Origin: Klebsiella phage vB_KaeM_KaOmega
Sequence record: MN013077.1
Length of the DNA: 64,000 nucleotides
Direction: 5' to 3' (one strand)
Below the pieces are notes generated by a model. The model was not told the DNA's origin, did not search any database, and saw only the letters and a program-made list of their open reading frames with translations. The position numbers and the translations under genes are program-made. This document shows positions 47,408-62,632 of this stretch, piece after piece; the stretch's first letter is position 1, and each line of letters begins with the position of its first letter.

Positions 47408-47409
47408 TA

Positions 47410-48350: not shown

Positions 48351-48367
48351 CAAAAGGAGATCGACCC

Positions 48368-48700: not shown

Positions 48701-48708
48701 AATAATGC

Positions 48709-48737: not shown

Positions 48738-48789
48738 TAACCACATAGCGACGCACACCGCGCCGCACTAACAAAGAGAGACCGTCATC

Positions 48790-49227: not shown

Positions 49228-49230
49228 ACG

Positions 49231-49259
49231 TTGACACCGGGGCCACCTAGCCCCATAAT
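49231..49259 (+). promoter_or_regulatory. sigma70 promoter with GGGGCC/GGCCCC spacer hairpin
   Basis: TTGACA-17-CATAAT. Confidence 0.7.
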
Positions 49260-49309
49260 ACAAACAAGCCCGGCAAATGGTGCCCGGCAAAATCAGAGAG
49301 TAAAAGAAA

Positions 49310-49531
49310 ATGGCTAAAGTAACCTATAAAAAATCACGTGGCGTTTCCTCTGTTAACCTGGCGGCGGTTGTAACCCTGCCCGCATACCGTACCCGTGACG
49401 AGGCGCGCGCCGTTGCCAGTAAGATCCGCGCCGCTGGCGTGACCCCGACAACGCCAACCAAAACGGCGGACGGCTGGCGAGTTACCGCAAAGCATAACGG
49501 CGGCACACTTTCCCGCAACACTCACCGCTAA
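49310..49531 (+). CDS. early small basic protein
   Basis: 73-aa ORF. Confidence 0.45.
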   Translation: MAKVTYKKSRGVSSVNLAAVVTLPAYRTRDEARAVASKIRAAGVTPTTPTKTADGWRVTAKHNGGTLSRNTHR

Positions 49532-49540
49532 CCAATTGCA

Positions 49541-49562
49541 GGCCCCCGGCGGGGGCCTTTCG
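49541..49562 (+). terminator. hairpin with weak T-tract (possible terminator or processing site)
   Basis: GGCCCCCG-GCGGGGGCC followed by TTTCGTGT. Confidence 0.35.
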
Positions 49563-49577
49563 TGTGGAGTCAGTAAC

Positions 49578-49922
49578 ATGACCAAACAGATCTACCATGT
49601 ACCGATCACGCCGCTTTTCCGTTGTCATATCTTTTATGACTGTAATGATCTTGCGGGGCAATGGATCGGCGATACCGATCAACAATATGATTTCCCGGAA
49701 TGGGACGAACTAAACCGCCGTGTAAGCAACGCCGCACACAATGCCGATCCTGATAGCCTGGCGGACGTGGAACACTTCCCCGGCGGGGCCGCTTGTTTTC
49801 CTTATATTGAGATCACCGCGCCAACGTGGGCGCTATGTAAAGCGATGGGCGACGCCGTGATCCGTTGCATCCTGGACAATGGCGGGATCGTCGAACCAAA
49901 AGACAACGGAATAAATATTTAA
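49578..49922 (+). CDS. early protein
   Basis: ATG at 49578. Confidence 0.4.
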   Translation: MTKQIYHVPITPLFRCHIFYDCNDLAGQWIGDTDQQYDFPEWDELNRRVSNAAHNADPDSLADVEHFPGGAACFPYIEITAPTWALCKAMGDAVIRCILDNGGIVEPKDNGINI

Positions 49923-49941
49923 ATTATTTTCGTTTTAGGGG

Positions 49942-49970
49942 TTGACGCCCGGCGGCGTTACCCTCATAAT
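49942..49970 (+). promoter_or_regulatory. sigma70 promoter (TTGACG-17-CATAAT)
   Basis: Consensus hexamers. Confidence 0.6.
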
Positions 49971-50022
49971 GTATCACATAGGGCGACGGAATAACCCGCC
50001 GCCAAAACCAAAAGGTAACAGT

Positions 50023-50262
50023 ATGCAAACCGTAATGATTAGCCACCCGGATCACGCTTCAGACTTCTACGCCCCGATTTACGCGCCGCTTGAATGGCAA
50101 CGCGCCGGACTGCAAAAAACCGCCACGGGCTACGGCACAAAGATCCCGACGTCCTACATGTTGGACTATCAAGGCAAGCGCCGCCGGATCTACGTTGACC
50201 AGTACAGCAACAGCGGCCACACTTACATAATGATCAAAGGCGAAAAAATTACGGTCTGCTAA
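50023..50262 (+). CDS. early small protein
   Basis: ATG at 50023; leader CACATAGGGCGACGG... Confidence 0.45.
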   Translation: MQTVMISHPDHASDFYAPIYAPLEWQRAGLQKTATGYGTKIPTSYMLDYQGKRRRIYVDQYSNSGHTYIMIKGEKITVC

Positions 50263-50271
50263 AAATAATTG

Positions 50272-50301
50272 TTGACCAGGGGCCGGGTTAGGCCCCATAA
50301 T
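50272..50301 (+). promoter_or_regulatory. sigma70 promoter with spacer hairpin
   Basis: TTGACC-18-CATAAT. Spacer GGGGCC-gggtta-GGCCCC. Confidence 0.7.
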
Positions 50302-50333
50302 ACCAGACATACCAAACAAACGAGGCTTTAAAA

Positions 50334-50564
50334 ATGAATCTGACTACTATCGGCGCTAACCAAACTATGATCACCCTGGCAAATGGCGCACAGGTTTTCT
50401 TTTCCTACAATACCCCGGTTGCGGCATACCTGCCCGGCGAGGGCTACTTGGTGACCGCCACAAAGCACAGCGCCACCACCTCAAAGCATGTTAACGCTTG
50501 GGCTGGCAAAGGTTGCGAGACCCGCCCACAGGAATTTTTTGATAATCTGATTAAATCCGCTTGA
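50334..50564 (+). CDS. early small protein
   Basis: 76-aa ORF. Confidence 0.45.
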   Translation: MNLTTIGANQTMITLANGAQVFFSYNTPVAAYLPGEGYLVTATKHSATTSKHVNAWAGKGCETRPQEFFDNLIKSA

Positions 50565-50590
50565 CGTTGGTTTATGCTGGGGTATATAAT
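50561..50590 (+). promoter_or_regulatory. sigma70 promoter (TTGACG-18-TATAAT)
   Basis: Consensus hexamers, no hairpin. Confidence 0.6.
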
Positions 50591-50642
50591 CCCCGGCATA
50601 GGCAAGCGAAAGCAAACAACCAAACCGAAAGGATAGTAAACG

Positions 50643-51023
50643 ATGAACATTATCAACACTGTAAACGCTAACGAAATCAAAGAAATTTCCGTAACTGGTA
50701 AACGTTGGTTCCAACGTAGCGCCGGGAACACTTACCACAGTGTAAGCCTGGCGGCGCTGGTATCCGTAGAAGTGGCGGACCGTTTAGGCGCTAACCAATA
50801 CGGAAACAAGTCCGGCGACGTGTGGATCGACCTGGCTTATGTTGGTTTCGCTTATGGGTATGAGCGCGGATTTGAACAAACCGCATTAAGTGCAATGATC
50901 GAGGCGGTGAAGGATTCCCCGGCGGCGTGGCGTAAAATGGTTTACGCTTGCCAGGCGGCGGCGGATCTGGGGGTTGTTTACACTGATAACGTTTACGACG
51001 TAAGCCGCAAAAAAGATTTATAA
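50643..51023 (+). CDS. early protein
   Basis: 126-aa ORF. Confidence 0.5.
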   Translation: MNIINTVNANEIKEISVTGKRWFQRSAGNTYHSVSLAALVSVEVADRLGANQYGNKSGDVWIDLAYVGFAYGYERGFEQTALSAMIEAVKDSPAAWRKMVYACQAAADLGVVYTDNVYDVSRKKDL

Positions 51024-51029
51024 TTGTGG

Positions 51030-51059
51030 TTGACACGGGGCCGGGTTAGGCCCCATAAT
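51030..51059 (+). promoter_or_regulatory. sigma70 promoter with spacer hairpin
   Basis: TTGACA-18-CATAAT. Confidence 0.7.
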
Positions 51060-51091
51060 ACCCGCACACCAACAGAAAAGAGATTCACACC

Positions 51092-51301
51092 ATGATCAAC
51101 GAACAGCAAGTAAACGACGTTAAACATGAGGCTTACCAGGTGGCGATCCGTAGCGGTTCCCGCGCCGCCTTTAATCTGGTTGTTGAGTTGTACCCAGAGC
51201 AGGCGCAAAATATCTTGATGCAGGTATCCGTTTTACTGGAGGCGACAAAGCACACCAAATTAAGCGCCGGGATCGACCGCCTCGCAAATAGTTTAAAATA
51301 G
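51092..51301 (+). CDS. early small protein
   Basis: 69-aa ORF. Confidence 0.45.
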   Translation: MINEQQVNDVKHEAYQVAIRSGSRAAFNLVVELYPEQAQNILMQVSVLLEATKHTKLSAGIDRLANSLK

Positions 51302-51304
51302 TTG

Positions 51305-51333
51305 TTGACATCGGGGCCACCCGGCCCCATAAT
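51305..51333 (+). promoter_or_regulatory. sigma70 promoter with spacer hairpin
   Basis: TTGACA-17-CATAAT. Confidence 0.7.
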
Positions 51334-51383
51334 CTGATACATAGCGACGCACAACGCGCCGCACAAAATAGAGAGACCGTAAA

Positions 51384-51749
51384 ATGACTACTTCCACCAA
51401 AAACACCGCCGCTACTGCCGCCGTTCGCGCTTACGTTGTATCTGTTATCGACTTTGAAGGCACCGACGCCGAAAAGCTGAAATTTTTCTTTGATACCCTG
51501 CAATCTGAATACGGGCACGAGGTTAGCCGCTTGGGTCCACAACGCGCCATCACGGAATATCTTCGCGGCCTGCCGTCGTCAATCAATCATGCTTTTATGA
51601 ATCATGAGATCCTTGATCTTTTGTCTGAATGGGGTTACATTCATTTCCACACCACAGCAGCCCAGGAAGAATGGGAGTTAGATCAGTATTGGACACGTTT
51701 GGCGGGTTCTCTGATTATTCAGGCACGTAAGCACGGGGTGATTGAATGA
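51384..51749 (+). CDS. early protein
   Basis: 121-aa ORF. Confidence 0.5.
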   Translation: MTTSTKNTAATAAVRAYVVSVIDFEGTDAEKLKFFFDTLQSEYGHEVSRLGPQRAITEYLRGLPSSINHAFMNHEILDLLSEWGYIHFHTTAAQEEWELDQYWTRLAGSLIIQARKHGVIE

Positions 51750-52060
51750 TTACAGTTCTAACCTTGATCGGGTTAGCGGCGGCGGCGCTGTACTGCGTCG
51801 CCACTTACAAGGCGTCAGTTTGGCGGAAGGGTCAAAAAATGTACGGCTATTTTGAATATGAGTACAAAGGGGAGAAGGGATCAAGCCGGGACTATGGCGC
51901 GATGTTAGAGATCGATATGGTTGGCGCTATGAATTATCGCCAGGAGTTAGGCGCGGCGATCACTTATGAAGTTTATGATCCCTCAGAAGAGAAGATCGGG
52001 GAGATAATTGATCAACGTTACTATATGGAACAGCAACAAAACAAACGCCGGAGAAAATGA
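51746..52060 (+). CDS. early membrane-anchored protein
   Basis: 104 aa with an N-terminal TM helix. Confidence 0.45.
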   Translation: MITVLTLIGLAAAALYCVATYKASVWRKGQKMYGYFEYEYKGEKGSSRDYGAMLEIDMVGAMNYRQELGAAITYEVYDPSEEKIGEIIDQRYYMEQQQNKRRRK

Positions 52061-52062
52061 GA

Positions 52063-52197
52063 ATGATTCACACTAATATTAACCGCGATAAACAACCGCG
52101 CCGCGCCCGTCTCTCATATGCTGAAGCAGGCGAGCGCCTGCAACGTGAGAAGGCCAACAAACAACAGCGCCGTAAAACGCGCTATAACTGGGAGTAA
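52063..52197 (+). CDS. tiny basic protein (44 aa)
   Basis: Found by hand; GGAG RBS. Confidence 0.25.
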   Translation: MIHTNINRDKQPRRARLSYAEAGERLQREKANKQQRRKTRYNWE

Positions 52198-52243
52198 CCG
52201 CCCCCGGCATGGAAACACCAGGCCAAACCGTTTAAACCGCACA

Positions 52244-52270
52244 GGGGGCCGCTTAGGCCCCTTATTTTTG
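52244..52270 (+). terminator. rho-independent terminator
   Basis: GGGGCC-gctta-GGCCCC followed by TTATTTTT. Confidence 0.6.
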
Positions 52271-52286
52271 ATCTACGGGGTACACA

Positions 52287-52514
52287 ATGCAAAACCTTTA
52301 CAGCATGACCGAATTTATCCGATTGTTAGCAGGTCGCCCGATGGGGTTTACCTGCCTTTACCTGGTAACCGACGGCAAAGGCTATCGTATAACGTCCAAA
52401 TCATTAGCCGCCATTGCAGCGCGGGAAGGGGTGAAGATCTCCACCTCCCAGGCGCTGATTGTGGACCCGGCGACCGTGGCGACGATTGAGGCGATCCGGG
52501 TTACCGTAAAATAA
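52287..52514 (+). CDS. early small protein
   Basis: 75-aa ORF; no dedicated promoter seen. Confidence 0.4.
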   Translation: MQNLYSMTEFIRLLAGRPMGFTCLYLVTDGKGYRITSKSLAAIAAREGVKISTSQALIVDPATVATIEAIRVTVK

Positions 52515-52538
52515 TTTAAAATATTTTCATCCTGGGGC

Positions 52539-52567
52539 TTGACGTCCGGCCCCGGTTCCCCCATAAT
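52539..52567 (+). promoter_or_regulatory. sigma70 promoter (TTGACG-17-CATAAT)
   Basis: Spacer CCGGCCCCGG. Confidence 0.65.
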
Positions 52568-52617
52568 CTAACCCATAGCGACGCACACCGCGCCGCACAA
52601 ACAAAAGAGAGACCGTT

Positions 52618-53034
52618 ATGACTTCCCCAATTTTCCGTATCAAATCAGGCTTATCGGCTTACGCATTATCTTGCGGTTACTTCCAGCGTATCGAGTCAGA
52701 GATCACCGGGGAAGATATCCGGGTTGACCTTTGGCATGAGTCGGGCCACTTCCACGCCCGCGCCCACAATTTTACAACCTCCACTCGGATCGAATGGGTA
52801 ACAGAAAGTAACCTTGACGACGCCCGCACACAATGGGCCGCGCTTGTCAAACAAATTTTTGGCGACGTGATCCGCACCATTAAAAAGGATAAGCGCTACA
52901 CCGTAAACCGTGAGTTTGCCGGAGAGTCATCACCCGCTTATGTGACCCGCTTTTGTGGCGAATGGGTATCAAACAGCGATACCGCGCCCGGCGCATGGGT
53001 AAAAGCCGCCGAACACAACGCCGAAAGAATTTAA
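52618..53034 (+). CDS. early protein
   Basis: 138-aa ORF. Confidence 0.5.
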   Translation: MTSPIFRIKSGLSAYALSCGYFQRIESEITGEDIRVDLWHESGHFHARAHNFTTSTRIEWVTESNLDDARTQWAALVKQIFGDVIRTIKKDKRYTVNREFAGESSPAYVTRFCGEWVSNSDTAPGAWVKAAEHNAERI

Positions 53035-53043
53035 AAATAATTG

Positions 53044-53072
53044 TTGACGGGGCCGACGATAGGCCCCATAAT
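53044..53072 (+). promoter_or_regulatory. sigma70 promoter with spacer hairpin (identical to the one at 48709)
   Basis: TTGACGGGGCCGACGATAGGCCCCATAAT. Confidence 0.7.
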
Positions 53073-53103
53073 ACCCACAGATAAGCAAACCGGAGTTAGA
53101 CCA

Positions 53104-53256
53104 ATGAAACATTATCTTGTAAACATTCCTGGCGTGGCTGGCCCGCTTAAAGTTTTCGGCTATGATGAACAGGACGCAAGAAAGCGCCTACGTGATCGGG
53201 AAGGTTTCGGATCACGCCTCCCACGGGGCACAAAATTTTATTTGCAAAACGCTTGA
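53104..53256 (+). CDS. tiny protein (50 aa)
   Basis: ATG at 53104. Confidence 0.35.
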   Translation: MKHYLVNIPGVAGPLKVFGYDEQDARKRLRDREGFGSRLPRGTKFYLQNA

Positions 53257-53282
53257 CGTGTGGTTATGCCGTCCCTTACAAT
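53253..53282 (+). promoter_or_regulatory. sigma70 promoter (TTGACG-17/18-TACAAT)
   Basis: Leader ACAAACGA...AACGAGG. Confidence 0.55.
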
Positions 53283-53334
53283 GACGGCATAGACAAACGA
53301 AAGCAAACCAGACAACCAAACGAGGGTTACAATT

Positions 53335-53586
53335 ATGTTTGAAGTATTCGCCGGAATGTGTTTTTATGCTGCCGCCGCTTTAAAACAGTGTGATGATTAC
53401 ACCGTTGAAGCATACGATGATCAATTAACGTGTGAGATCGTCGCCAATGGCTACCGTCAGGACCCGCGCTGGATTAACCCGGCTTGCATACCGGGGCCGG
53501 AAGTGGAAGCAATGCCGGAGGGTGATCCGTGGCTTGAACCTGTACCGCCTGCCGATCATTTCAATGTTAACCCGGCACAAAAATAA
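53335..53586 (+). CDS. early small protein
   Basis: 83-aa ORF. Confidence 0.45.
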   Translation: MFEVFAGMCFYAAAALKQCDDYTVEAYDDQLTCEIVANGYRQDPRWINPACIPGPEVEAMPEGDPWLEPVPPADHFNVNPAQK

Positions 53587-53589
53587 TTG

Positions 53590-53617
53590 TTGACGTGTGG
53601 TTATAGGTCTGTATAAT
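53590..53617 (+). promoter_or_regulatory. sigma70 promoter (TTGACG-16-TATAAT)
   Basis: Consensus hexamers. Confidence 0.6.
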
Positions 53618-53660
53618 GCGGACCTATAGACAAACGAAACGCCACCAAACGAGGCACAAA

Positions 53661-54020
53661 ATGAAATCATACGCTGAAGCTATCGCCACCCGTCCCGATC
53701 TCCTGGTAAAGGGTGATCTATTCCTTACGCTGGAGACTTTCGATTTTTCCCGTGATATCAACGGCAATACGATCAACAAATATCGCGCCGCGCTTGTCTC
53801 AGGCGACGAACAAAGCGTTTTAAACTGGTACGCCGCCGCCAATGAGCTGGAGATCCTCAAATCACCTTATCGCCGTGAACAGTCCCATAATGACGGCGCA
53901 AGCGCCGCCCTTTATCGCTTGGGCTTGCTGGGGTACGAACTGGAATACATTACCACACAATACGGCCCCGGCAAGCGCCGCGCCTATCGAATTTTCTACC
54001 GTGTAAAGAATGCAAAATAA
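53661..54020 (+). CDS. early protein
   Basis: ATG at 53661. Confidence 0.45.
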   Translation: MKSYAEAIATRPDLLVKGDLFLTLETFDFSRDINGNTINKYRAALVSGDEQSVLNWYAAANELEILKSPYRREQSHNDGASAALYRLGLLGYELEYITTQYGPGKRRAYRIFYRVKNAK

Positions 54021-54023
54021 GTA

Positions 54024-54052
54024 TTGACCAGGGGCCGGAAAGGCCCCATAAT
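54024..54052 (+). promoter_or_regulatory. sigma70 promoter with spacer hairpin
   Basis: TTGACC-17-CATAAT. Spacer GGGGCC-ggaaa-GGCCCC. Confidence 0.7.
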
Positions 54053-54088
54053 ACCAGACATACCCAAACAGGCATAAGAGGCCACAAA

Positions 54089-54268
54089 ATGAAATCATCT
54101 TTACTTTTCGCCCTGGTTGACATCGTGATCGGCAACGGTTGCGGGCAACATACTTTCATAGCTAACCGCCCCTATCCGCTGAAGTCATTGCAGGCCGACG
54201 CCCGCCTAACCGCCGGGCAGATCCGCCGCTACTTTCGTGAACCACACCCGGCAAAAAGTGCAAAATAA
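54089..54268 (+). CDS. tiny protein (59 aa)
   Basis: AAGAGG RBS. Confidence 0.35.
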   Translation: MKSSLLFALVDIVIGNGCGQHTFIANRPYPLKSLQADARLTAGQIRRYFREPHPAKSAK

Positions 54269-54271
54269 TTG

Positions 54272-54301
54272 TTGACGCCGGGCACCGTCCCGGCTTACAA
54301 T
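54272..54301 (+). promoter_or_regulatory. sigma70 promoter (TTGACG-17-TACAAT)
   Basis: Spacer CCGGG-N7-CCCGG. Confidence 0.55.
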
Positions 54302-54330
54302 GACCTCACACAAACAAACGAGGCTATAAC

Positions 54331-54627
54331 ATGCAACAGGCTAACACTCTTTTCATTCTGGCAAACGTAGCGGATCACGTCGTGGCTTCATTGTCTAACG
54401 TGGCGGGCACCGTCCAGATCATTTGCCGCCATATGGATGACAAAGCGCCGAACCGCTTACAAATCAACGTAGACCGCGCCGGGAAAGAATTTGTGATCTC
54501 TTATGACGCTATCTACAACGGCAAGCGGATCACGCAAGCAAAAAGCCAGCCTATCCCCGGCGATTTTGTCCAGGACGTGATCGCCGATATCGTAAACGAC
54601 ACGATCCCAGCGGGGGCCGCTGTATGA
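54331..54627 (+). CDS. early protein
   Basis: 98-aa ORF. Confidence 0.45.
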   Translation: MQQANTLFILANVADHVVASLSNVAGTVQIICRHMDDKAPNRLQINVDRAGKEFVISYDAIYNGKRITQAKSQPIPGDFVQDVIADIVNDTIPAGAAV

Positions 54628-54779
54628 ATCCGCATAAACTTTTAATCACCAGCTACACCAGCAAGGCGGATCGCCGTGAAACTTTGGACCGCTTAACCCG
54701 CTATTATCAGGAGGCCGGGCACAATAAGACAACCGCCCGCGCCCTGGCTAAAAAACGTTTACGTTTTGGTAAAAATTAG
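54624..54779 (+). CDS. tiny basic protein (51 aa)
   Basis: ATGA overlap with the upstream gene. Confidence 0.3.
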   Translation: MNPHKLLITSYTSKADRRETLDRLTRYYQEAGHNKTTARALAKKRLRFGKN

Positions 54780-54780
54780 C

Positions 54781-54809
54781 TTGACGCCCGGCCCGAAAGG
54801 GCCGATAAT
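54781..54809 (+). promoter_or_regulatory. sigma70 promoter (TTGACG-17-GATAAT)
   Basis: Spacer GGCCC-gaaa-GGGCC. Confidence 0.6.
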
Positions 54810-54861
54810 CTCTCACATAGGGCGGGGAATGGTTCCCCGCATTATCTAAGAGGTTATGAAC

Positions 54862-55014
54862 ATGTTTACTTTGATGACTTGGGAACACGAATCAAGCGCC
54901 CCGATCCGCCGGACCTTTGAAAACTTATGCGCTGCTTATCGCCTGGCGCAAGGCGGTTACTATAAAGCCCAAATCATCGACGAAAACAATATTGTAATGT
55001 ACGAATTTAAATGA
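54862..55014 (+). CDS. tiny protein (50 aa)
   Basis: AAGAGG RBS. Leader hairpin GGGCGGGGAATGGTTCCCCGC. Confidence 0.35.
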   Translation: MFTLMTWEHESSAPIRRTFENLCAAYRLAQGGYYKAQIIDENNIVMYEFK

Positions 55015-55043
55015 TTGACATCCGGCCCGAAAGGGCCGATAAT
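55015..55043 (+). promoter_or_regulatory. sigma70 promoter (TTGACA-17-GATAAT)
   Basis: Near-identical to the promoter at 54781. Confidence 0.6.
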
Positions 55044-55076
55044 GACCCCCACACCAAACAAAAGAGAGACCGTAAA

Positions 55077-55283
55077 ATGATTACTATGATTCTGCAAAAG
55101 TCCCGCCTGATTGATGTTACCGTCACCCTGTCCGCTTGCGGTGAATCATCCCGCCGGGCCGATCATTACCAGGTTACCGCTGTAAGCGACAACGGCGCGA
55201 TCCTGCTGTCTGAGGCGACCCCCGCGCTACATGAGGCATTTTTGACTTATTCGAAGTGGAAAGGGCCGGAAGAAATAAAATAA
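55077..55283 (+). CDS. early small protein
   Basis: ATG at 55077 with GAGAGACCGT leader. Confidence 0.45.
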   Translation: MITMILQKSRLIDVTVTLSACGESSRRADHYQVTAVSDNGAILLSEATPALHEAFLTYSKWKGPEEIK

Positions 55284-55290
55284 AAAGTAG

Positions 55291-55319
55291 TTGACGGCGG
55301 GGCCGATAGGCCCCATAAT
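55291..55319 (+). promoter_or_regulatory. sigma70 promoter with spacer hairpin
   Basis: TTGACG-17-CATAAT. Confidence 0.7.
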
Positions 55320-55353
55320 ACCACCACACCAAACGAATAAAGAGAATCACAAA

Positions 55354-55608
55354 ATGTTAAAATTCATCAAATCACTTTTCACCCGTACCGCCCCGGCTTG
55401 CAAGTTGCCACCCCTGGAGGCGAAAGGTGTGATCGCTCGCAAAGTCTCAGAATTGTTTATCATTTCATTGGTTCACAATGGCGGCGACTGTTACGAAATC
55501 ATCGAAATGGGCCGCTACACTAAAACAGGATCAAGCCGTGTCCGCTACGGTGAACACCGCGCCCGGAATCATTTTGATTCTGTATGCTGTATGGTCGGTG
55601 CAAAATAA
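55354..55608 (+). CDS. early small protein
   Basis: ATG at 55354. Confidence 0.45.
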   Translation: MLKFIKSLFTRTAPACKLPPLEAKGVIARKVSELFIISLVHNGGDCYEIIEMGRYTKTGSSRVRYGEHRARNHFDSVCCMVGAK

Positions 55609-55611
55609 ACC

Positions 55612-55640
55612 TTGACGGGGCCAACGTTAGGCCCCATAAT
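55612..55640 (+). promoter_or_regulatory. sigma70 promoter with spacer hairpin
   Basis: TTGACG-GGGCC-N7-GGCCC-CATAAT. Confidence 0.7.
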
Positions 55641-55690
55641 GTATCACACAGGGCGACACAACGCCGCCCACAAACAAAAGGCAGACCGTT

Positions 55691-56053
55691 ATGATCTTCA
55701 ATATCACCGAACTGAAAAAGAAAATGTCAGAGATGCTCTTCAATATTAGTGAATACGGGCACCCGTCCTACACTATCTTTGAGGCTGTTTTGTCAAAGTG
55801 CCAAAAGTTCGAATTAGTGATCGAGGTTGTACCGGGTCGCCTCCTGAAGTTGGGATCTGGCAAGTGGGGTTATAAACTTGATGCCTACGTCCAACAGTTA
55901 GCCGCCGGGGCCGATCCTATGGCAGATGATTATTGCGATGATGCCGACACTATCGCAAGCGTGGACGGTGAATATTGCCGGACAAAGGCGGCGCTTTTTG
56001 AAGCGATCAGCGAAGTTATCAACGAAGCAAAAGAAAACGTAATAACACGATAA
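55691..56053 (+). CDS. early protein
   Basis: 120-aa ORF. Confidence 0.5.
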   Translation: MIFNITELKKKMSEMLFNISEYGHPSYTIFEAVLSKCQKFELVIEVVPGRLLKLGSGKWGYKLDAYVQQLAAGADPMADDYCDDADTIASVDGEYCRTKAALFEAISEVINEAKENVITR

Positions 56054-56067
56054 GCTAAAAAGAATTG

Positions 56068-56097
56068 TTGACGCCGGGAAGCGTTACGGGTTATACT
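56068..56097 (+). promoter_or_regulatory. sigma70 promoter (TTGACG-17/18-TATACT)
   Basis: Spacer CCGGG..CGGG. Confidence 0.5.
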
Positions 56098-56145
56098 CTT
56101 TTCATCGGGTCACAACAGACCACAACAAACAAAGAGAGAAACAAA

Positions 56146-56223
56146 ATGAGCGTAATCTTCCTAGTATCTGTTTTCGTAGCTATTGCATCTTCTACCGCAA
56201 TTTGTATCAAACTGGGATACTAA
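56146..56223 (+). CDS. tiny hydrophobic peptide (25 aa, MSVIFLVSVFVAIASSTAICIKLGY)
   Basis: AAAGAGAGA RBS. Directly downstream of the promoter. Confidence 0.3.
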   Translation: MSVIFLVSVFVAIASSTAICIKLGY

Positions 56224-56227
56224 TTAA

Positions 56228-56620
56228 ATGACTACTTTCAACGTTTTACACTTAAACGCTTTTATCGCGGGTTACATTGAGGCAATGTTTTTTGCAGAGT
56301 CCGCCACCGATAGCGACGGCGAAGAGATCGAAAGTTTAGCCGGGTATGAGTTAAGCGCTGAAGCCCTGGACGCTGCCCGCATGGATTGTGCCCGCTTTAT
56401 GGACGTTGCGCCTCTGTTACTCAAAGGGGCAATGCTGGCAGGGGTTGACTATGACCACACCCAGGCGGGCCGGGATCTATGGTTTAGCCGTCAAGGGCAC
56501 GGCGTAGGATTCTGGGATCGCGGACTTGGGGCGATCGGTGATAAACTCCACGACGTGGCGAAGACTTTCGGATCAAAAAATCTGTTTATCAATGATGCCG
56601 GATTTATTGAGGTAGAATAA
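56228..56620 (+). CDS. early protein
   Basis: 130-aa ORF. Confidence 0.45.
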   Translation: MTTFNVLHLNAFIAGYIEAMFFAESATDSDGEEIESLAGYELSAEALDAARMDCARFMDVAPLLLKGAMLAGVDYDHTQAGRDLWFSRQGHGVGFWDRGLGAIGDKLHDVAKTFGSKNLFINDAGFIEVE

Positions 56621-57081
56621 TGAACCTTACAGATCTGAAGTATTACGACGAATTGACCCCAGCGGCGCAAGCTGAAGCCCGGCGCAACGTTGCCGCTAGT
56701 GTGCAGACTCACCACGGGCGGGAAATCGGAAAGGCGTTTTTTAAATTCCAGCGGGACCCAAACAAGGCGATCAATGACCCGCTGCACATCCGCCGGATCA
56801 TCAATGGCGGCGAAGCGTGGCGCAAGATCCGCCAGGAGGGCGACGCCTATCTAATCCGCTTTATCCGGTCCAATAAAGTGATCTTTACTGATTGCGGGGC
56901 GTATGTAGCGTATGTGGACGCCTTCACAATGTTTATTGATGGGTTGGAATACATACCCACAGCCGAACAGCAAAAGACTCTTAGAACGCCTTACATCGAC
57001 GTTAACGGGCGGGGGCCTGCGTTTCATGATTGGCTATACCGTATGCACCACAAAATAAAGTTTTTCATGATCCGGGGTTGA
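56620..57081 (+). CDS. early protein
   Basis: 153-aa ORF. Confidence 0.5.
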   Translation: MNLTDLKYYDELTPAAQAEARRNVAASVQTHHGREIGKAFFKFQRDPNKAINDPLHIRRIINGGEAWRKIRQEGDAYLIRFIRSNKVIFTDCGAYVAYVDAFTMFIDGLEYIPTAEQQKTLRTPYIDVNGRGPAFHDWLYRMHHKIKFFMIRG

Positions 57082-57106
57082 CACCCGGCGGAATAGGGCC
57101 GATAAT
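57078..57106 (+). promoter_or_regulatory. sigma70 promoter (TTGACA-17-GATAAT)
   Basis: Leader hairpin GGGCGGGGAATGGTCCCCGG, as at 54820. Confidence 0.6.
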
Positions 57107-57159
57107 GTCTCTCATAGGGCGGGGAATGGTCCCCGGCCCAATGAACTGGAGTCAGTACA

Positions 57160-57411
57160 ATGGAAATCAAACACGTAATTTCTGCAAACGTCGCCGTTTT
57201 AGGTTCTGTAAGTGAAACCCGTGTGAGTCTGGCGAAATGGTGCGCCGCTCAAACTTTCGGGAGTTACGGCGAAAAGGTAACAGAGGTTAAGCGCTTGCTT
57301 TCCTTTGGCAACGTGGGCCGCAAGTTGTTAACAGAGGATATCGCCCGCCGGGTTGAGATCCATTATTCACTTGCTCAAATCATCGTAAAAGAGATCGAAA
57401 GCGCAATTTAA
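57160..57411 (+). CDS. early small protein
   Basis: 83-aa ORF. Confidence 0.45.
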   Translation: MEIKHVISANVAVLGSVSETRVSLAKWCAAQTFGSYGEKVTEVKRLLSFGNVGRKLLTEDIARRVEIHYSLAQIIVKEIESAI

Positions 57412-57449
57412 CCCGGCCCGGCCCCGAAAGGGGCCAAAAGGAAAATAAA

Positions 57450-57629
57450 ATGACTTATTTCAGAAACTTAGAAAACGGGCATTATTACACCATATCCGCC
57501 GGGCGGGTTCGTTGGTGGCTGGATCATTCTGCCGTGTGGGTCCGTAGTGAACATCTAAAGCCGTGTGACCTTGCCCACTATCCGTATATTGGAACCACCA
57601 CCGGACCAGGGGCCGAAAATGGGCGCTAA
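57450..57629 (+). CDS. tiny protein (59 aa)
   Basis: Preceded by a GGCCCC-gaaa-GGGGCC hairpin with no promoter hexamers. Confidence 0.3.
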   Translation: MTYFRNLENGHYYTISAGRVRWWLDHSAVWVRSEHLKPCDLAHYPYIGTTTGPGAENGR

Positions 57630-57843
57630 TACCCGCAACCGCTACGGCATAACGCGCCGTTTCGGGGTCTGCTATATGCTGGCAGATGATCCACAATACA
57701 GGGCATTGCTGGAGGCTTACCAGGTCACCAAACTGGACGCCCAAAAGGGCCGGGCCGAACATGCCGCCCACGTAGCGAACATCAAAGCGTTACACGAATT
57801 TTTAGCCGTCGCTGAAAAGCGCCACGACATCCGCCACCGTTGA
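57619..57843 (+). CDS. small basic protein
   Basis: ATG at 57619 overlaps the upstream stop. Confidence 0.35.
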   Translation: MGANTRNRYGITRRFGVCYMLADDPQYRALLEAYQVTKLDAQKGRAEHAAHVANIKALHEFLAVAEKRHDIRHR

Positions 57844-57854
57844 GAGTGCAAACC

Positions 57855-58049
57855 ATGATCACAGAATCCGAGATCCGCCAAACGTTAGCCGCCTTGCGTT
57901 ACCTCCACGCCTTGCGCCGGGCAAGTGATCCGACTTATGCCGGGTCATGCCTGGCTAACGATGCCGAAAACGGGATCGCCACACTGAAAGAATTAAACGA
58001 CCGCATGAGCGACAGCGACCGATCCGACTTCATAGGGGGCGAAATATGA
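57855..58049 (+). CDS. small protein
   Basis: ATG at 57855. Confidence 0.4.
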   Translation: MITESEIRQTLAALRYLHALRRASDPTYAGSCLANDAENGIATLKELNDRMSDSDRSDFIGGEI

Positions 58050-58246
58050 TCGACTTATCCGGCGTGAAGCCTGGCGATCTGGTCTGGGCCTTTGACTATC
58101 CGACCGATCCACCGTATGACGTTTGCAACGCTTGCAAACTGGAGTATTTGAACACCGGGAAAAATGAGTACCAGTTACGCCGCCCGGATAACGGCGTGAT
58201 CGTTTACTTTCGCTACATCGCACCAATTGAAGGGGCCAAACCATGA
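58046..58246 (+). CDS. small protein
   Basis: 66-aa ORF. Confidence 0.4.
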   Translation: MIDLSGVKPGDLVWAFDYPTDPPYDVCNACKLEYLNTGKNEYQLRRPDNGVIVYFRYIAPIEGAKP

Positions 58247-58557
58247 TCGCCATTACGCCAACCGTTTTAGATTGGTATCGCCAACAGATCGCGCCGCCGC
58301 TGGCTATCTTCAAACAGGCAGAAAGCAAACAGCGCCGGATCTCCATTCATGAGATCATCACCCTTAACGCCGGGGCGGTCCCGTTCAATCCTGGGGCGGG
58401 TCGCAACATGGGCAACACGTTAGCGCTTTTGAGTTTACGCCGGAAACGGTCCGCCCTTACCTTGGATTCACTCCGCATGATGGGAGATCCGCACCGGGTA
58501 ACAGGTCGCCGGATCGCCAGGGCCTGGGAACGGGCAAACGGTCGAAAGGTTGTATAA
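58243..58557 (+). CDS. hypothetical basic protein
   Basis: 104-aa ORF. Confidence 0.45.
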   Translation: MIAITPTVLDWYRQQIAPPLAIFKQAESKQRRISIHEIITLNAGAVPFNPGAGRNMGNTLALLSLRRKRSALTLDSLRMMGDPHRVTGRRIARAWERANGRKVV

Positions 58558-58975
58558 AATAACAGTGTTTACAGGGGTTGAATTGTTCGCCCCTTTTTGT
58601 TATCCTTTTTTCATGCGATGGCACCTGATGCAGGGGGAGACAAACACCGGACCTGCCCGCTATTCAGGAAGGCGGACCGGACCTGGGTCTCTCCGGATAG
58701 ATGAGAATGGTTATCATTCCCAATCAAATCAAATACATACTTTCAAACCGTTGTCAAATTTATTTCGTACTCCTGTATAAATGTACATGGTTCTAAAACG
58801 TCCTGAATCGCGTTTTAAGCCGTTTTCCCCTTACCCGGTATCCTACATCATAAAAATATAGATCTCTCGAAATCGGACTTTCGCACTTTTTGCCCTTGCA
58901 AACGTAAAAATTTTATGTTAGACCTGAAGGGCTGAAAGCCGGGTTTACGTTGACAAAACTTTACAATTCTCCCTA

Positions 58976-59003
58976 TTGCATCGATCCGCCATTGTGCTAT
59001 TAT
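58976..59003 (+). promoter_or_regulatory. candidate sigma70 promoter (TTGCAT-16-TATTAT)
   Basis: Upstream of gene 59057; leader is of the GGGCGGC family. Confidence 0.4.
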
Positions 59004-59056
59004 TTATCACGTAGGGCGGCAATGACGCGACGGCCCGCAGAGAGGAGACAGTAAAA

Positions 59057-59428
59057 ATGAACCTGACCAACTTCAACCGCTACTACATCCGCGACGAACA
59101 GGCAAACGCTTTTGGGTACGATCGTTCGTTCGAAATGCAACAGCACGTAGGCGGCGCAAAGTTACACGTTGAAACTGTTACCTTTGAAAACTATTTTATG
59201 GCGACCTTTGACAATGGTTTACAGATCTCCATTGAGTACAAAGGCGGCGTGATGACTCTCGCCACTGAGGATAAATTCCGCAAAAAAGATCTTTTGAATC
59301 ATCCAGGTTTTGCCAGCAACAAAGAATTATTGATTAAAATTTATATCCGCTGGGTAGTGGGCCGCATCGCAACAGAAGAGCAGATCGCCGCCCTGGTGGA
59401 TCTGGCTCTGAATCTGGATTTAAATTAA
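59057..59428 (+). CDS. early protein
   Basis: 123 aa; GAGAGGAG RBS. Confidence 0.5.
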   Translation: MNLTNFNRYYIRDEQANAFGYDRSFEMQQHVGGAKLHVETVTFENYFMATFDNGLQISIEYKGGVMTLATEDKFRKKDLLNHPGFASNKELLIKIYIRWVVGRIATEEQIAALVDLALNLDLN

Positions 59429-59431
59429 TAG

Positions 59432-59460
59432 TTGACAAGGGGCCGGAAAGGCCCCATAAT
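59432..59460 (+). promoter_or_regulatory. sigma70 promoter with spacer hairpin
   Basis: TTGACA-17-CATAAT; identical core to the promoter at 54024. Confidence 0.7.
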
Positions 59461-60169: not shown

Positions 60170-60370
60170 ATGACAACCGCCAACCGCCTGATCGATGTTC
60201 TGAATGATGCAAAGGCAAACCGTTTAGCCGTGGCAATCAAAGAAGAGGCAAACGGGCTGATCCTGGCAAGTGTTACCGATGGCTGTTACACTGAATCATT
60301 CCATGCTGATACACTGGAGTATCTCGCCCACAGATTAGAAATGATCGTTGACGATTGGCGGCTATTGTGA
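60170..60370 (+). CDS. last small protein of the rightward array
   Basis: 66-aa ORF. Confidence 0.45.
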   Translation: MTTANRLIDVLNDAKANRLAVAIKEEANGLILASVTDGCYTESFHADTLEYLAHRLEMIVDDWRLL

Positions 60371-60385
60371 TCCGACCAAACCAAA

Positions 60386-60414
60386 CAGGCCCGGCATAGT
60401 CCGGGCTTTTTAGT
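60386..60414 (+). terminator. rho-independent terminator
   Basis: GGCCCGG-cata-GTCCGGGC followed by TTTTTAGTG. Confidence 0.65.
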
Positions 60415-60666
60415 GCCTGCAATCCGGCCCGGTATTGGTCCGACTCCCCCAGCCTATAAGCCCTTATCATTTAACATTGTGGAAATCAACATCTAATTTT
60501 ATTCATAAAAACATGCATAATTGAATACAGGAGGCGCTAACCCACTAGCCAGGGTTGAGAGTAGCGGGCCGCATAGGGCCTTACAGCGCGTTTTAGCCCC
60601 TATTGACTTCTATCTGCAAACGTGTATCAGGCCACAACTGACTAAATCACCTTTTCTTTACATAAC

Positions 60667-60697
60667 TTGACACTATTTATTCATTTATCTGCATAAT
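60667..60697 (+). promoter_or_regulatory. candidate promoter (TTGACA-17-TGCATAAT) in the non-coding region
   Basis: No downstream ORF. Points toward the inverted-repeat-flanked element. Confidence 0.3.
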
Positions 60698-60762
60698 GCG
60701 AGAATGATTATCATTTACAATCAATAACTTAACTTTTTATTGACTTCTGACAAAACACGGTT

Positions 60763-60911
60763 TTACGTTCCCACGGATCAAGGGAGGGCGCGCCGGAGGC
60801 GCGACCAATAGAAAACAGGTAACGAACCCTCCCCCGTTGCTAGCTCGCAACGGTTTAGGCTTACGTTCCCACGGTCAAGGGATGACCGCTATCACCTGTT
60901 TTCTATTGGTC
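60763..60911. other. structured element: two 23-nt direct repeats plus an 18-bp perfect inverted repeat (GACCAATAGAAAACAGGT / ACCTGTTTTCTATTGGTC) enclosing about 73 nt with internal palindromes
   Basis: Direct repeats at 60763-60785 and 60861-60883. Inverted-repeat arms at 60803-60820 and 60894-60911. Internal GGGAGGG..CCCTCCC and CGTTGC..GCAACG pairings. Confidence 0.5.
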
Positions 60912-61149
60912 ATTTGTGATTGAAAATCACGTAAAGTCAAGTTTTATTTTACAAATGAGAGTTATTCTTATCTGCATAAAGATTGGTTTTATCTGCATAA
61001 ATACGTAAACAGGCGGACCCGGTACGGGCCGGAGGGCCTGAGAGGAGAGGGCCTTTATTGCTCACAAAACAGCCGAAAGCGTAGCTTTTGCCTGGCAAAA
61101 TTCACTCTTCGTGTCAAGCGAAAAATAATTTTTTTTCTTTTTTCGTAAA

Positions 61150-61295
61150 CGATAATGATTCTCATCCGAGAACCATTCTCAAAGGGCGAATGCGAGTCAT
61201 TCTCATTGGCATTCCACAACGTGAGTGAGACTCATTCTCATCTAGGCCACGGCTGGCGGGCCTCTCCACGTGTTGGGAATGATTATCATTATCCC
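61150..61295. repeat. cluster of TTCTCAT(T) half-sites and an AATGATTATCATT palindrome
   Basis: Four TTCTCAT half-sites between 61159 and 61241. Palindrome at 61278-61290. The same AATGATTATCATT also at 60705-60717. Confidence 0.5.
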
Positions 61296-61897
61296 GAGTG
61301 CGTATAAGGTGTATTATGTTAAATGGGGAAATGTTGGGGGAGGCACACCACAGCCCGGCTGTCAATAAGAGAAGTGTAAAGATGGGCAAGATGGTAGACA
61401 TTTTGTGACTTTGATCGCGTAAAGTTAGGGGCTACCGATCGGGATTCAAGATTGGGAGGGAGAGGCTAAGTAATTGATTATTAAGGATATTTGGGAAAAA
61501 TAACAGGTGCCCCTCCCCACCCCTGTTCGCCATGCCTGGCAGCTATATCCATACGCTGAGATATTTTTCTGGTTTCTGGGCAAGAAGGGCCACCCCTGAT
61601 CGCGTTCTAAAAATTTTGGCGGGAGGGTATTTTGACATAAAAAGAGGGTACACCCAACGGGAGCGCCTCTTCAGGCGTCCCTTGATATTTGGGCAATGTG
61701 GGAATACAGACGGGTACGTCTCTGTGGGAACAGGTATACCCGGCGGGAGAGGGCCTCCCGGACGGGGTATGGCGCTCGCAGAGTTATCAACAGGACAGAA
61801 CACACGTTCGCCTCTTCAGGCAGTGGGTTAGACTCAAGTGGGACTCTTTAGGCCCTGTCAGGTCTACCAGTGTGGGAAACAAAATCCCGGAGGGAAG

Positions 61898-61924
61898 ATA
61901 CAAAAAAGGCCCGCAAAGGGCCTA
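61898..61924 (-). terminator. rho-independent terminator for the leftward gene
   Basis: GGCCC-gcaaa-GGGCC followed by a T-run on the minus strand. Confidence 0.6.
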
Positions 61925-61930
61925 TGTGGA

Positions 61931-62260
61931 TCACCGGATAGGGAAGTGGGCTTCCTTCAGGTTGCAATTGACGTGTCTGCGGATAGCCATCCACCCGATG
62001 TGACCAAATCCGTTCAGTTCTTCCTCGAACTGCTTCAGCTTCGCCCGGAGGACTGGGTACTCAACCCCAACCTGACCGGAAGATGTTCTGGTCATACATA
62101 TAGTGTGGCACAGATCCATTAGGGCCTCGGACCTGCGCTTATTGTTCCGGGTAACCTGACGAATGGCGTTGGCCTTCCTCAGTTCTTTGATATCTTTGTT
62201 CCAACGGTGGGCAATGGCAGGTCTACAAGGGCAGGTTTGACTCTTCAGGTGTGGTTTCAT
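61931..62260 (-). CDS. Cys/His-rich protein, possible HNH-like nuclease or zinc finger
   Basis: 109 aa. CPCRPAIAHRW ... LCHTIC. AAGAGGA RBS; own promoter. Confidence 0.4.
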   Translation of the reverse strand: MKPHLKSQTCPCRPAIAHRWNKDIKELRKANAIRQVTRNNKRRSEALMDLCHTICMTRTSSGQVGVEYPVLRAKLKQFEEELNGFGHIGWMAIRRHVNCNLKEAHFPIR

Positions 62261-62296
62261 AGGTGTTCCTCTTTGGCATGTTTGGAATATGTGGGA

Positions 62297-62325
62297 AGTA
62301 TACTGGTGTTTTGGGAAGGAGTCAA
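62297..62325 (-). promoter_or_regulatory. sigma70 promoter on the minus strand (TTGACT-17-TATACT) with adjacent GGGCC-gaaa-GGCCC hairpin
   Basis: Minus-strand -35 is plus 62320-62325; -10 is plus 62297-62302. Confidence 0.55.
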
Positions 62326-62341
62326 GGGCCTTTCGGCCCTT

Positions 62342-62632
62342 TTATACGATTTCGAAGGATTTGCGAAACAGGTTCATGTGGTCATTGAGGAAGACCCATG
62401 TGGCACTGTCTCCCTGCTCATAATCGTCGTTGTACACAACCACGATATCATATGGTGGGAATTTGTCAGCATATGTGGTGGTCCGGAACCTGTAGGCCTG
62501 CCCAACCTGGAATCCATGCCCGTTGTGCTCAAGGCACCGGGCAACCCCGAACTCCGGAACAGGGAAGTATAACTGCGTCCATGTGGGTCGTGGCGGGCGC
62601 GTAGGGACGTTCCAACGATATGCCTTAGACAT
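62342..62632 (-). CDS. hypothetical protein
   Basis: 96-aa ORF. Confidence 0.45.
   Translation of the reverse strand: MSKAYRWNVPTRPPRPTWTQLYFPVPEFGVARCLEHNGHGFQVGQAYRFRTTTYADKFPPYDIVVVYNDDYEQGDSATWVFLNDHMNLFRKSFEIV

Follow-up and report, generated by a model that had tools for sequence, protein, structure and literature searches.

A conserved non-coding hub of Certrevirus-like phages combines Fur-type operator sequences with a candidate structured RNA

What could a gene-free gap of 1.5 kb be for, when it lies between two converging arrays of small early genes in a virulent phage? The question is raised by positions 60415-61930 of Klebsiella phage vB_KaeM_KaOmega, in the 64,000-nt stretch of record MN013077.1 that was analyzed here and that we call the window. 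An earlier note, made from the letters alone, had described this gap, the hub, as rich in repeats, palindromes, and structure and had listed as candidate roles a non-coding RNA, a replication origin, a packaging site or genome terminus, and a homing or insertion scar. We propose, with a probability of about 0.45, that it is a non-coding control hub operated by host factors through Fur, IHF, and DnaA sites and driving a lineage-specific structured RNA of about 150 nt. Such a hub would have three layers: a structured strand at 60761-60917; promoter elements of the early type, with TTGACA/T as the -35 and CATAAT-like hexamers as the -10; and sites for host proteins, namely eight Fur boxes, two inverted IHF-like sites, and one conserved DnaA box (Table 1).

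By sequence, the phage is Certrevirus-like (rV5-like; subfamily Vequintavirinae). A search with positions 60300-62000 matched 25 phage records at ~80 to 91% identity, nearly all of them Certrevirus, among them Enterobacter phage F1M1E, Cronobacter phages CR3, CR8, CR9, and PBES 02, and Pectobacterium phages phiTE (hub at ~48.9-51.1 kb), CB7, POP15, P7_Pc, and PcCB7V; Salmonella phage SSBI34 gave a single, more distant match. The converging rightward and leftward early arrays flank the hub in all annotated relatives, and their predicted terminators would insulate it on both sides. The hairpin that ends the rightward array was read from the sequence; the terminator scan called it on the minus strand only, and a weak Rfam match to the Trp leader at 60350-60414 overlaps it. 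The earlier statement that the gap has no open reading frame does not hold literally, as mechanical frames of up to 104 amino acids are present. None of them remains open across eight relatives, so coding potential was rejected and the region is non-coding.

In an alignment of nine hubs (the window and eight relatives), identity reaches 0.8 to 1.0 over most of 60480-61420 and much of 61480-61760, compared with only ~0.3 in the flanking genes. The hub is constrained more strongly than the genes beside it, which argues against a scar or junk. The view that it is a decaying remnant, left by a homing endonuclease or by degenerate early-gene cassettes, could appeal to the HNH gene that lies within the right part of the hub in phiTE (phiTE_097, 5574-6074 of the phiTE segment analyzed) and in CB7 and to early-type promoter hexamers with no genes behind them. 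The alignment of phiTE to the window ends at ~61590, and the insertion there indicates that the right part of the hub tolerates such events. Against conservation far above that of adjacent genes, a fold maintained by compensatory changes, and box positions kept across genera, we consider a remnant barely credible, and the homing or insertion scar of the earlier note is likewise unsupported.

The first layer is the element at 60761-60917. Both repeats that the earlier note had pointed out are present: two direct repeats, TTACGTTCCCACGG(A)TCAAGGGA, at 60763-60785 and 60861-60882 (22 to 23 nt, invariant, with starts 98 nt apart), and an 18-bp perfect inverted repeat with arms at 60803-60820 and 60894-60911 enclosing 73 nt. 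The arms form a closing helix of 18 to 22 bp. Positions 60761-60916 fold with -68.3 kcal/mol on the plus strand (z = -5.3 against shuffles) and -74.7 kcal/mol on the minus strand (z = -6.8). An RNAalifold consensus of eleven sequences has 50 pairs, with 98.7% of cells paired, and comprises two 5' hairpins, the 18-bp helix with an AACG/CGUU extension, an inner hairpin, and a GGUCA...UGACC hairpin. The inner hairpin occurs as CCGUUGC/GCAACGG, CUUUGC/GCAAAG, CGGCGC/GCGCCG, and AUUUUGC/GCAAAAU, and at its inner end the long helix switches between CAGG/CCUG and GGGG/CCCC among relatives. Nine pairs show changes on both sides, compared with 4.3 +/- 1.3 in shuffles (none of 500 reached nine) and 0 to 2 in slid controls. 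The structure conservation index of the element is 0.94, with a z score of -4 to -6. A sliding RNAalifold scan of the hub found structure conservation of this order nowhere else; in a few windows that align poorly, low energy went with a low index. The element is a conserved folded single strand with covariation, and of the claims made here its structure is among the solid ones.

We next consider where the element occurs. In SSBI34 it is nearly identical to that of the window although the flanks have diverged. A covariance-model search of related phages, an experiment that the earlier note had suggested, returned exactly one copy each in the window, SSBI34, and two IMG/VR Certrevirus contigs and no match in the Fur-box hubs of T5, two T5-like phages (of Klebsiella and Vibrio), a Phapecoctavirus, a Serratia phage, and a Pseudomonas phage. 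When IMG/VR was scanned for the repeat motif, both copies were found only in Certrevirus-type contigs; a similar scan of metagenomes gave 120 single matches, a chance-like outcome, and a scan of bacterial genomes with a 22-mer of the element gave none. No Rfam 15 family matched at its gathering threshold (RsmY came closest, with 11 bits and E = 2.7, its threshold being 57), and a tRNA scan of the region found none. The element is known only from Certrevirus and SSBI34, once per genome, and the covariation makes it a clean candidate for a new phage RNA family. Its long perfect helix, as modeled, would suit processing by RNase III, and the two invariant repeats would suit protein binding.

Resemblances to known RNAs were rejected one after another. 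The sub-threshold Rfam matches (the Trp leader, which is the flanking terminator, as well as snoRNAs and RsmY) are noise. A sponge of the CsrB/RsmY type does not fit, with about four GGA motifs in 156 nt, close to chance, and a GGA loop that is GUA in several relatives. A mini-CRISPR array or a solitary repeat acting as an RNA anti-CRISPR would need repeats of 28 to 37 nt and spacers of ~32 to 38 nt, and the repeats here are 22 to 23 nt long with starts 98 nt apart; they are not known to resemble type I-E and I-F CRISPR repeats beyond GTTCCC. The pseudo-ToxI of phiTE is likewise a non-coding RNA locus in a Certrevirus intergenic region. It differs from the hub element in consisting of tandem 36-nt repeats that mimic the ToxI antitoxin, and it lies at 106.7 kb in phiTE, a different locus.

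The element also bears on the proposal that the hub is a pac site or a physical genome end, which had been among the roles first suggested. Two records, those of PBES 02 and SSBI34, are cut inside the hub, and IHF-like sites occur at some pac and cos sites. The PBES 02 record (KT353109) ends at the 5' arm (...GACCAATAGAAAACAGG) and starts at the 3' arm (CCTGTTTTCTATTGGTC), and the 73-nt loop is absent. This boundary at the repeat arms is probably an assembly collapse at the hairpin, in which case the record likely lacks part of the element; it looks like an assembly break, not a terminus. GATC is not enriched in the hub, with 5 palindromic sites (10 over both strands) against ~20 expected by the same count. 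In addition, phiTE DNA is terminally redundant and circularly permuted (PMC3475682). A packaging site or terminus is thus very improbable.

Which promoters could serve the element? All promoters discussed here are predictions, scored with a rough sigma-70 matrix. The promoter that the earlier note had read as TTGACA-17-TGCATAAT is found at 60667-60697 and can equally be read as TTGACA-19-CATAAT; this candidate, P_B, is invariant in eight Certrevirus relatives and retained in SSBI34. A second candidate, P_C, has a TTGACT that is invariant in Certrevirus. As these two best sigma-70-type sites of the hub sit just upstream of the element on the plus strand, we favor plus as the transcribed strand of the putative RNA, at odds of roughly two to one. 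For the non-coding RNA that had been suggested, then, the conserved fold with covariation is established, and transcription is a prediction from the two promoter candidates that point into it.

The TATCTGCATAA repeats appear to belong to the same layer. Four copies had been reported; three are exact, at 60686, 60969, and 60990 (the latter two one position away from where they had been placed), and the copy at 60611 is only TATCTGCAAAC, not a full TATCTGCATAA. Three exact copies in 315 bp is a count that no shuffle reached. The repeats hold the usual -10 of the phage, with TGCATAAT at 60514 and 60690 and TGCATAAA (CATAAA-type) at 60973 and 60994, and the hub has four of the window's eight TGCATAW copies. 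Because they contain CATAAT or CATAAA, they are best read as putative -10-type elements of hub-specific rightward promoters. They were also considered as Fur sites and rejected, since they do not score with the Fur matrix described below. In nearly all relatives, the last TATCTGCATAA copy has a Fur-type box within ~25 nt; in phiTE and PcCB7V, GATAATGAGAATCATTAT boxes (18/19 and 17/19 to the consensus) stand ~25 nt upstream of it.

The early genes to the left of the hub have promoters of a single architecture, of which we counted ~20 on the plus strand at 48700-59450 (for example, at 59432, 51305, and 55015): aaaataattgTTGAC(G/A), a 17-nt spacer, and then CATAAT in ~15 of those listed or GATAAT, TACAAT, or TATAAT otherwise. 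Their transcripts would start in CACA(T/C)AG. Many of the spacers are GC-rich inverted repeats (GGGGCC...GGCCC), and a hairpin within a promoter spacer is unusual. The architecture matches that of the sigma-70-like early promoter known from Certrevirus (PMC7344957).

The third layer rests on the palindromes. The two GAATGATTATCATT palindromes, at 60702 and 61277, had been taken for operators, and by sequence they match the operators of the host repressor Fur. The best single match, at 61275-61293, has two mismatches to the 19-bp E. coli consensus GATAATGATAATCATTATC, and 60700-60718 has three; two sites with at most three mismatches were observed, compared with 0.01 expected per window. The 7-1-7 dyad (TGATAATnATTATCA; TGAKAATnATTMTCA, at most two mismatches) occurs 13 times in the window and 0 to 2 times in 20 shuffles. 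Eight of the 13 sites are in the hub, three are in a second hub at 47.9-48.0 kb, and two are in other early intergenic gaps. Six overlapping pairs are offset by exactly 6 bp (47919/25, 47980/86, 58700/06, 60697/703, 61218/24, and 61272/78), the same arrangement as in footprinted Fur clusters, whose overlapping sites are offset by 6 (or 3) bp (PMC2189734).

A weight matrix was built from 28 distinct phage boxes and scanned against a 27-kb stretch of E. coli K-12 surrounding the enterobactin genes. All six top matches fell in the divergent, Fur-controlled promoter regions fepB|entC, fepD|entS, and fepA|fes, which make up ~3% of the 27 kb. At the ryhB locus, the best match (24.9 bits) was the box immediately upstream of ryhB, whose operator, GCGAATGAGAATGATTATTATT, is nearly the same sequence as GCGAGAATGATTATCATT in the hub; Fur box 1 resembles this operator. 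The central array is ~90% conserved among relatives, and box positions are conserved even in SSBI34; the Pectobacterium phages have gained near-perfect GATAATGAGAATCATTATC boxes by insertion. In sequence specificity, then, the hub palindromes are those of enterobacterial Fur operators, and this identity of the boxes is, with the fold, the solid part of our case.

It is conceivable that the palindromes are instead operators of a phage-encoded DNA-binding protein and merely resemble Fur boxes. Their consensus, TGAGAAT-n-ATTCTCA, has G/C where the classical Fur box has T/A, and all boxes lie in the early region, with no matrix site of at least 14 bits in the window's first 47 kb. However, the matrix recovers genuine E. 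coli Fur operators with high specificity, the ryhB operator itself contains GAGAAT, and several boxes are classical Fur sequences (GATAATGATAATCATTCCC at 61275-61293; GATAATGAGAATCATTATC in phiTE and PcCB7V). The boxes are also common to Demerecviridae, Vequintavirinae, Stephanstirmvirinae, and an unclassified 151-kb Pseudomonas phage, and sharing among unrelated families is easier to explain by a conserved host protein than by one specific to a phage. A phage-encoded protein therefore appears quite improbable. Outside the two hubs, lone strong boxes stand at 52056-52074 (22.8 bits) and 58700-58724 (23.9 bits), in other gaps or at gene boundaries of the rightward array.

If Fur is the protein, the boxes need not control the hub. 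They could form a sink in trans, by which multiplying genomes titrate Fur and derepress host iron uptake or the Fur regulon at large, the RNA being an unrelated neighbor. Multicopy Fur boxes derepress Fur-controlled genes, as in the classical Fur titration assay. The phage boxes are closer to ideal than the E. coli ent-cluster operators scanned (20 to 29 versus 14 to 19.5 bits), most lie away from promoters, and the early region of the window alone has at least 14 strong sites. Titration would, for example, supply the iron-dependent ribonucleotide reductases of the phage; Certreviruses encode NrdA/B and some also NrdD/G (PMC7344957). A sink has no need of the positional conservation that the boxes show even in SSBI34, and box 1 has classical repressor geometry at a predicted promoter. 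In T5, whose hub has such boxes too, they lie on first-step-transfer DNA and are single copy when acting, and host DNA is destroyed early, so titration cannot be the shared reason for the arrays. We regard a sink as improbable on balance.

Under the reading that we prefer, a host-operated control hub, iron-loaded Fur in an iron-replete cell would occupy the box at the P_B start site, the boxes beside the other CATAAT-type elements, and the central array, and transcription of the hub would stay low. In an iron-starved host, or once Fur is soaked up by replicating phage DNA, the hub promoters would fire and the structured RNA would accumulate. Fur occupancy, promoter activity, the transcribed strand, and the function of the RNA are what we infer here; the sequences suggest that the phage reads or manipulates host iron status. 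If Fur does occupy these sites, a host metal-sensing repressor would be wired into the early program of a strictly lytic phage group. Infection outcome could then depend on iron, which would be relevant where phages are applied against Cronobacter, Enterobacter, and Pectobacterium in settings poor in iron, such as plants, infant formula, and the gut.

Several observations weigh against this proposal. A sigma-70 matrix scan found no convincing promoter at the central array of five to six boxes, an absence more in keeping with a sink or an architectural role than with promoter occlusion; the box at 61272 overlaps a TTATCC-17-TATTAT candidate that is weak. In the second hub, the boxes lie 55 to 170 bp upstream of promoter-like elements. 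The spacer of P_B is 19 nt rather than the 17 nt of the early promoters, and the TTGACT of P_C is not kept in SSBI34. As for the strand, the signal from wobble (G-U) and A-C evidence in the fold is mixed, the minus strand folds slightly better, and an invariant TTGACT faces the element from the opposite side. Downstream of the element, neither strand has a canonical intrinsic terminator.

The opposing TTGACT belongs to AAAGTCAAG, which is (nearly) invariant in 12 of the 12 sequences compared, within variable surroundings. A leftward TTGACT-17-ACAAAT promoter there would have its start site within the 3' arm of the helix; the window offers it a weak -10, and SSBI34 has TTGACT-16-TATAAA. The terminator-like hairpin at 61032-61060 is not significant against shuffles. 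Its sequence varies, and the hairpin was kept in the one relative folded (F1M1E).

Table 1. Features of the hub by position in the window; promoters and protein sites are predictions
Feature	Position	Strand	Remarks
Intrinsic terminator of rightward early array	60386-60412	+	GGCCCGG-catagt-CCGGGC, then TTTTT; read from sequence
TGCATAAT box	60514-60521	+	Contains CATAAT, usual -10 hexamer of the phage
Promoter-like TTGACT-16-TATCAG, contains TATCTGCAAAC	60603-60630	+	Hexamers kept in SSBI34 (TTGACA...TATCAC); spacer differs
P_B candidate, TTGACA-19-CATAAT, with TATCTGCATAA copy 1	60667-60697	+	Score 12.0, best sigma-70-type site of hub
Fur box 1, overlapping 19-mers at 60697 and 60703	60697-60721	.	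Three mismatches to GATAATGATAATCATTATC; 23.0 and 10.2 bits; covers predicted P_B start
IHF-consensus site AATCAATAACTTA	60719-60731	+	Between P_B and P_C; ATCAATAACTTAA invariant in relatives
P_C candidate, TTGACT-18-TACGTT	60740-60769	+	Score 11.1, second best of hub; -10 inside direct repeat 1
Structured element, probably RNA of ~150 nt	60761-60917	+ favored	Two 5' hairpins, then closing helix around three-way junction
AAAGTCAAG, TTGACT on minus strand (60940 to 60935)	60932-60940	-	Candidate -35 of leftward TTGACT-17-ACAAAT
Fur box 2 (60954-60972) with TATCTGCATAA copies 2 (60969-60979) and 3 (60990-61000)	60954-61001	+	Box overlaps copy 2; 19.4 bits
Weak terminator-like hairpin	61032-61060	+	GGAGGGCC...AGGGCCUU, then UAUUG; tentative
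AT-rich tract GAAAAATAATTTTTTTTCTTTTTTCG	61120-61146	.	GC 0.36-0.37; conserved in relatives
Central Fur-box array	61148-61296	.	19-mer starts 61148, 61165, 61189, 61218/61224, 61272/61278; 14-25 bits
IHF-consensus site AATCAATTACTTA	61467-61479	-	Inverted relative to first; partly conserved in relatives
Leftward modules	61660-61731	-	TTCCCAC at 61698-61704 and 61724-61730; ATCAAGGGA at 61678-61686; hairpin CGCC-UGAAGA-GGCG at 61664-61677
DnaA-box variant TTATCAACA	61784-61792	+	Consensus TTATACACA or TTATGCACA there in six relatives
Second CGCC-UGAAGA-GGCG-type hairpin (61809-61821) and TTTCCCACAC module (61872-61878)	61806-61878	-	
Intrinsic terminator of leftward early array	61905-61925	-	AGGCCC-tttgc-GGGCCT, then TTTTTTG; terminator scan

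The remaining host-factor sites raise the possibility that the hub is a lytic replication origin or another nucleoprotein site acting in cis, at which Fur, IHF, and DnaA assemble, the structured transcript serves as primer or activator, and the AT-rich tract melts. We consider this unlikely, if worth serious attention. The tract adjoins a dense array of protein sites, and two of the three matches to the IHF consensus WATCAANNNNTTR in the window fall in the hub, inverted to each other. The DnaA box is kept within otherwise variable sequence, the hub as a whole is laid out as a large-scale dyad, with plus-strand modules on the left and minus-strand modules on the right, and its conservation is extreme for a gene-free region. 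A region of similar composition in T5 carries eight DnaA boxes (bioRxiv 10.1101/866236). The hub, with its promoter, structured transcript, AT-rich intergenic segment, and possible two-sided transcription, also recalls the transcription-primed origins, such as T4 ori(uvsY) and ori(34), the primary origin of T7, and ColE1 RNAII/RNAI.

It differs from these origins in its convergent flanking transcription and in the lack of a GC-skew switch at the hub, and no relation to their sequences is expected. Transcription from both flanks and from the promoter-like modules within the hub converges on its center, the opposite of help to melting, and the strongest skew reversal of the window is near 36 kb. 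The single DnaA box is ~640 bp from the AT tract, and T5 origins have been mapped near the genome center, away from the region with the equivalent boxes. Finally, the second hub looks more origin-like and is, judged by its repeats, the better candidate (47.4-48.4 kb). This non-coding region, at 47407-48360, has three or four iteron-like repeats of 54 to 63 nt built on GGGGTCTCGATCG...GATCGTATTCTC, together with TCAGATTTCA-type repeats. Of its four Fur boxes (47919, 47957, 47986, and 48015), the final three follow one another at intervals of exactly 29 bp, and the one at 48015 is a perfect TGAGAATCATTCTCA; two TGTGTATAAT-type promoter elements come next.

Arrays of such boxes are not confined to Certrevirus. 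A 103-nt box array of a Klebsiella T5-like phage, used as a query, matched 622 phage records, which span T5-like phages of Salmonella, Escherichia, Klebsiella, and Vibrio, Phapecoctavirus, Certrevirus, a Serratia phage, and a Pseudomonas phage. In T5 itself (AY587007, 9330-9637), palindromes E to I and direct repeat C of the injection-stop region ("repeat region 3") scored 18 to 28 bits with the Certrevirus-derived matrix, the box AATGAGAATCATTATCATT reaching 28.4 bits; these are the same Fur-type boxes as in the hub, and DnaA boxes adjoin them. Palindrome D, TACTGTATAAATATACAGTA, is a near-perfect LexA SOS box.

The two regions are alike in other respects. Repeat region 3 is untranslated, ~1.2 to 1.5 kb long, and packed with repeats and palindromes; it has DnaA boxes that include the same TTATCAACA variant, and in the T5-like Vibrio phage X1 it likewise lies between converging genes. 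In T5-like phages, as at the hub, the repeat regions are conserved better than many adjacent reading frames. The T5-like hubs differ in having eight paired DnaA boxes, the LexA box, and 15-nt direct repeat D units; the hub of the window has one DnaA box and no LexA box. The T5 region lies in the terminal repeat and is tied to two-step injection, whereas Certrevirus genomes are circularly permuted. The structured element is present in the Certrevirus hub and absent from the T5-like hubs.

We tentatively suggest that near-ideal Fur arrays with DnaA, IHF, and, in T5-like phages, LexA boxes form a common building block, as yet unnamed, of the non-coding hubs of unrelated large virulent phages: rV5-like Certrevirus, Phapecoctavirus, T5-like Demerecviridae of Enterobacterales and Vibrio, and the 151-kb Pseudomonas phage. 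T5 palindromes E to I would then be Fur boxes and D an SOS box. Host repressors would be recruited in cis, either to sense iron, DNA damage, or replication status or to build a nucleoprotein complex, and in Certrevirus the block would be coupled to a new structured RNA. The comparative study by Davison stressed the DnaA boxes and the high conservation of the untranslated regions and never mentioned Fur or LexA. An incomplete literature search turned up no mention of Fur boxes for T5-like or rV5-like phages, so a prior description is possible. Fur would be a concrete candidate in a forty-year-old question, the identity of the protein that binds the T5 injection-stop palindromes. In SSBI34, a LexA-box-like TACTGTATAAATATACATGG (L003 1522-1541) and a Fur-type box at 1453 lie in an intergenic gap 1.4 kb upstream of the hub.

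Bacterial Fur operators offer two further comparisons. The fepA-fes, fepD-entS, and fepB-entC clusters share with the phage arrays the 19-bp dyads, the 6-bp offsets, and a length of up to ~150 bp, and one matrix recognizes both. The phage boxes differ in being nearer to ideal, in lying mostly off any recognizable promoter, and in standing in a virulent genome with no iron-uptake genes nearby. Many of them are also regularly spaced at 29 or 35 bp, as in L147 2502-2607, L005 1472-1595, and window 47957-48033; this spacing, unlike the bacterial 6-bp phasing, hints at a defined higher-order complex. The second comparison is with E. coli ryhB, where, as predicted for the hub, a Fur box overlaps a sigma-70-type promoter, with a short non-coding unit downstream. 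The hub element is unlike ryhB in its length of ~150 nt, its three-way junction, and its closing helix, and unlike Hfq-dependent small RNAs in having no terminator made of a GC hairpin and a U tail. It has no sequence relation to RyhB, k-mer identities being at chance level.

Other short units in the hub were considered as RNAs. A conserved minus-strand segment at 61497-61603 starts with GCGATCAGG, nine bases of the 5' end of E. coli RyhB, and ends in a G-rich run, GGGGTGGGGAGGGG, followed by CCTGTTATTTTTC, which made it a candidate leftward small RNA of ~105 nt. It was rejected, as CR8-type relatives do not keep the terminator pairing and the matches to RyhB are no better than chance. Mimicry of RyhB in general was set aside on the same ground: the 9- to 11-nt identities, at 61057 (plus), 61464 (minus), and 61595 (minus), are on different strands and at chance level. 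Small units at 61003-61066 (plus) and 61630-61705 (minus) showed either no folding advantage over shuffles or pairing that relatives do not keep.

The right part of the hub echoes the left. The left module, TTCCCAC...ATCAAGGGA (direct repeat 1) with its GC hairpin, recurs inverted from 61704 to 61660, where the CGCC/GGCG stem becomes AGCC/GGCT in relatives. TTCCCAC occurs 13 times in the window, and seven copies lie within 60768-62461, two on the left (plus) and five on the right (minus). A good leftward promoter, TTGACT-17-TATACT at 62325, has one of the copies after its -10, and the early promoters start in CACA contexts; for these reasons, the TTCCCAC modules look like promoter or start-site pieces pointing to the central Fur array and the AT tract.

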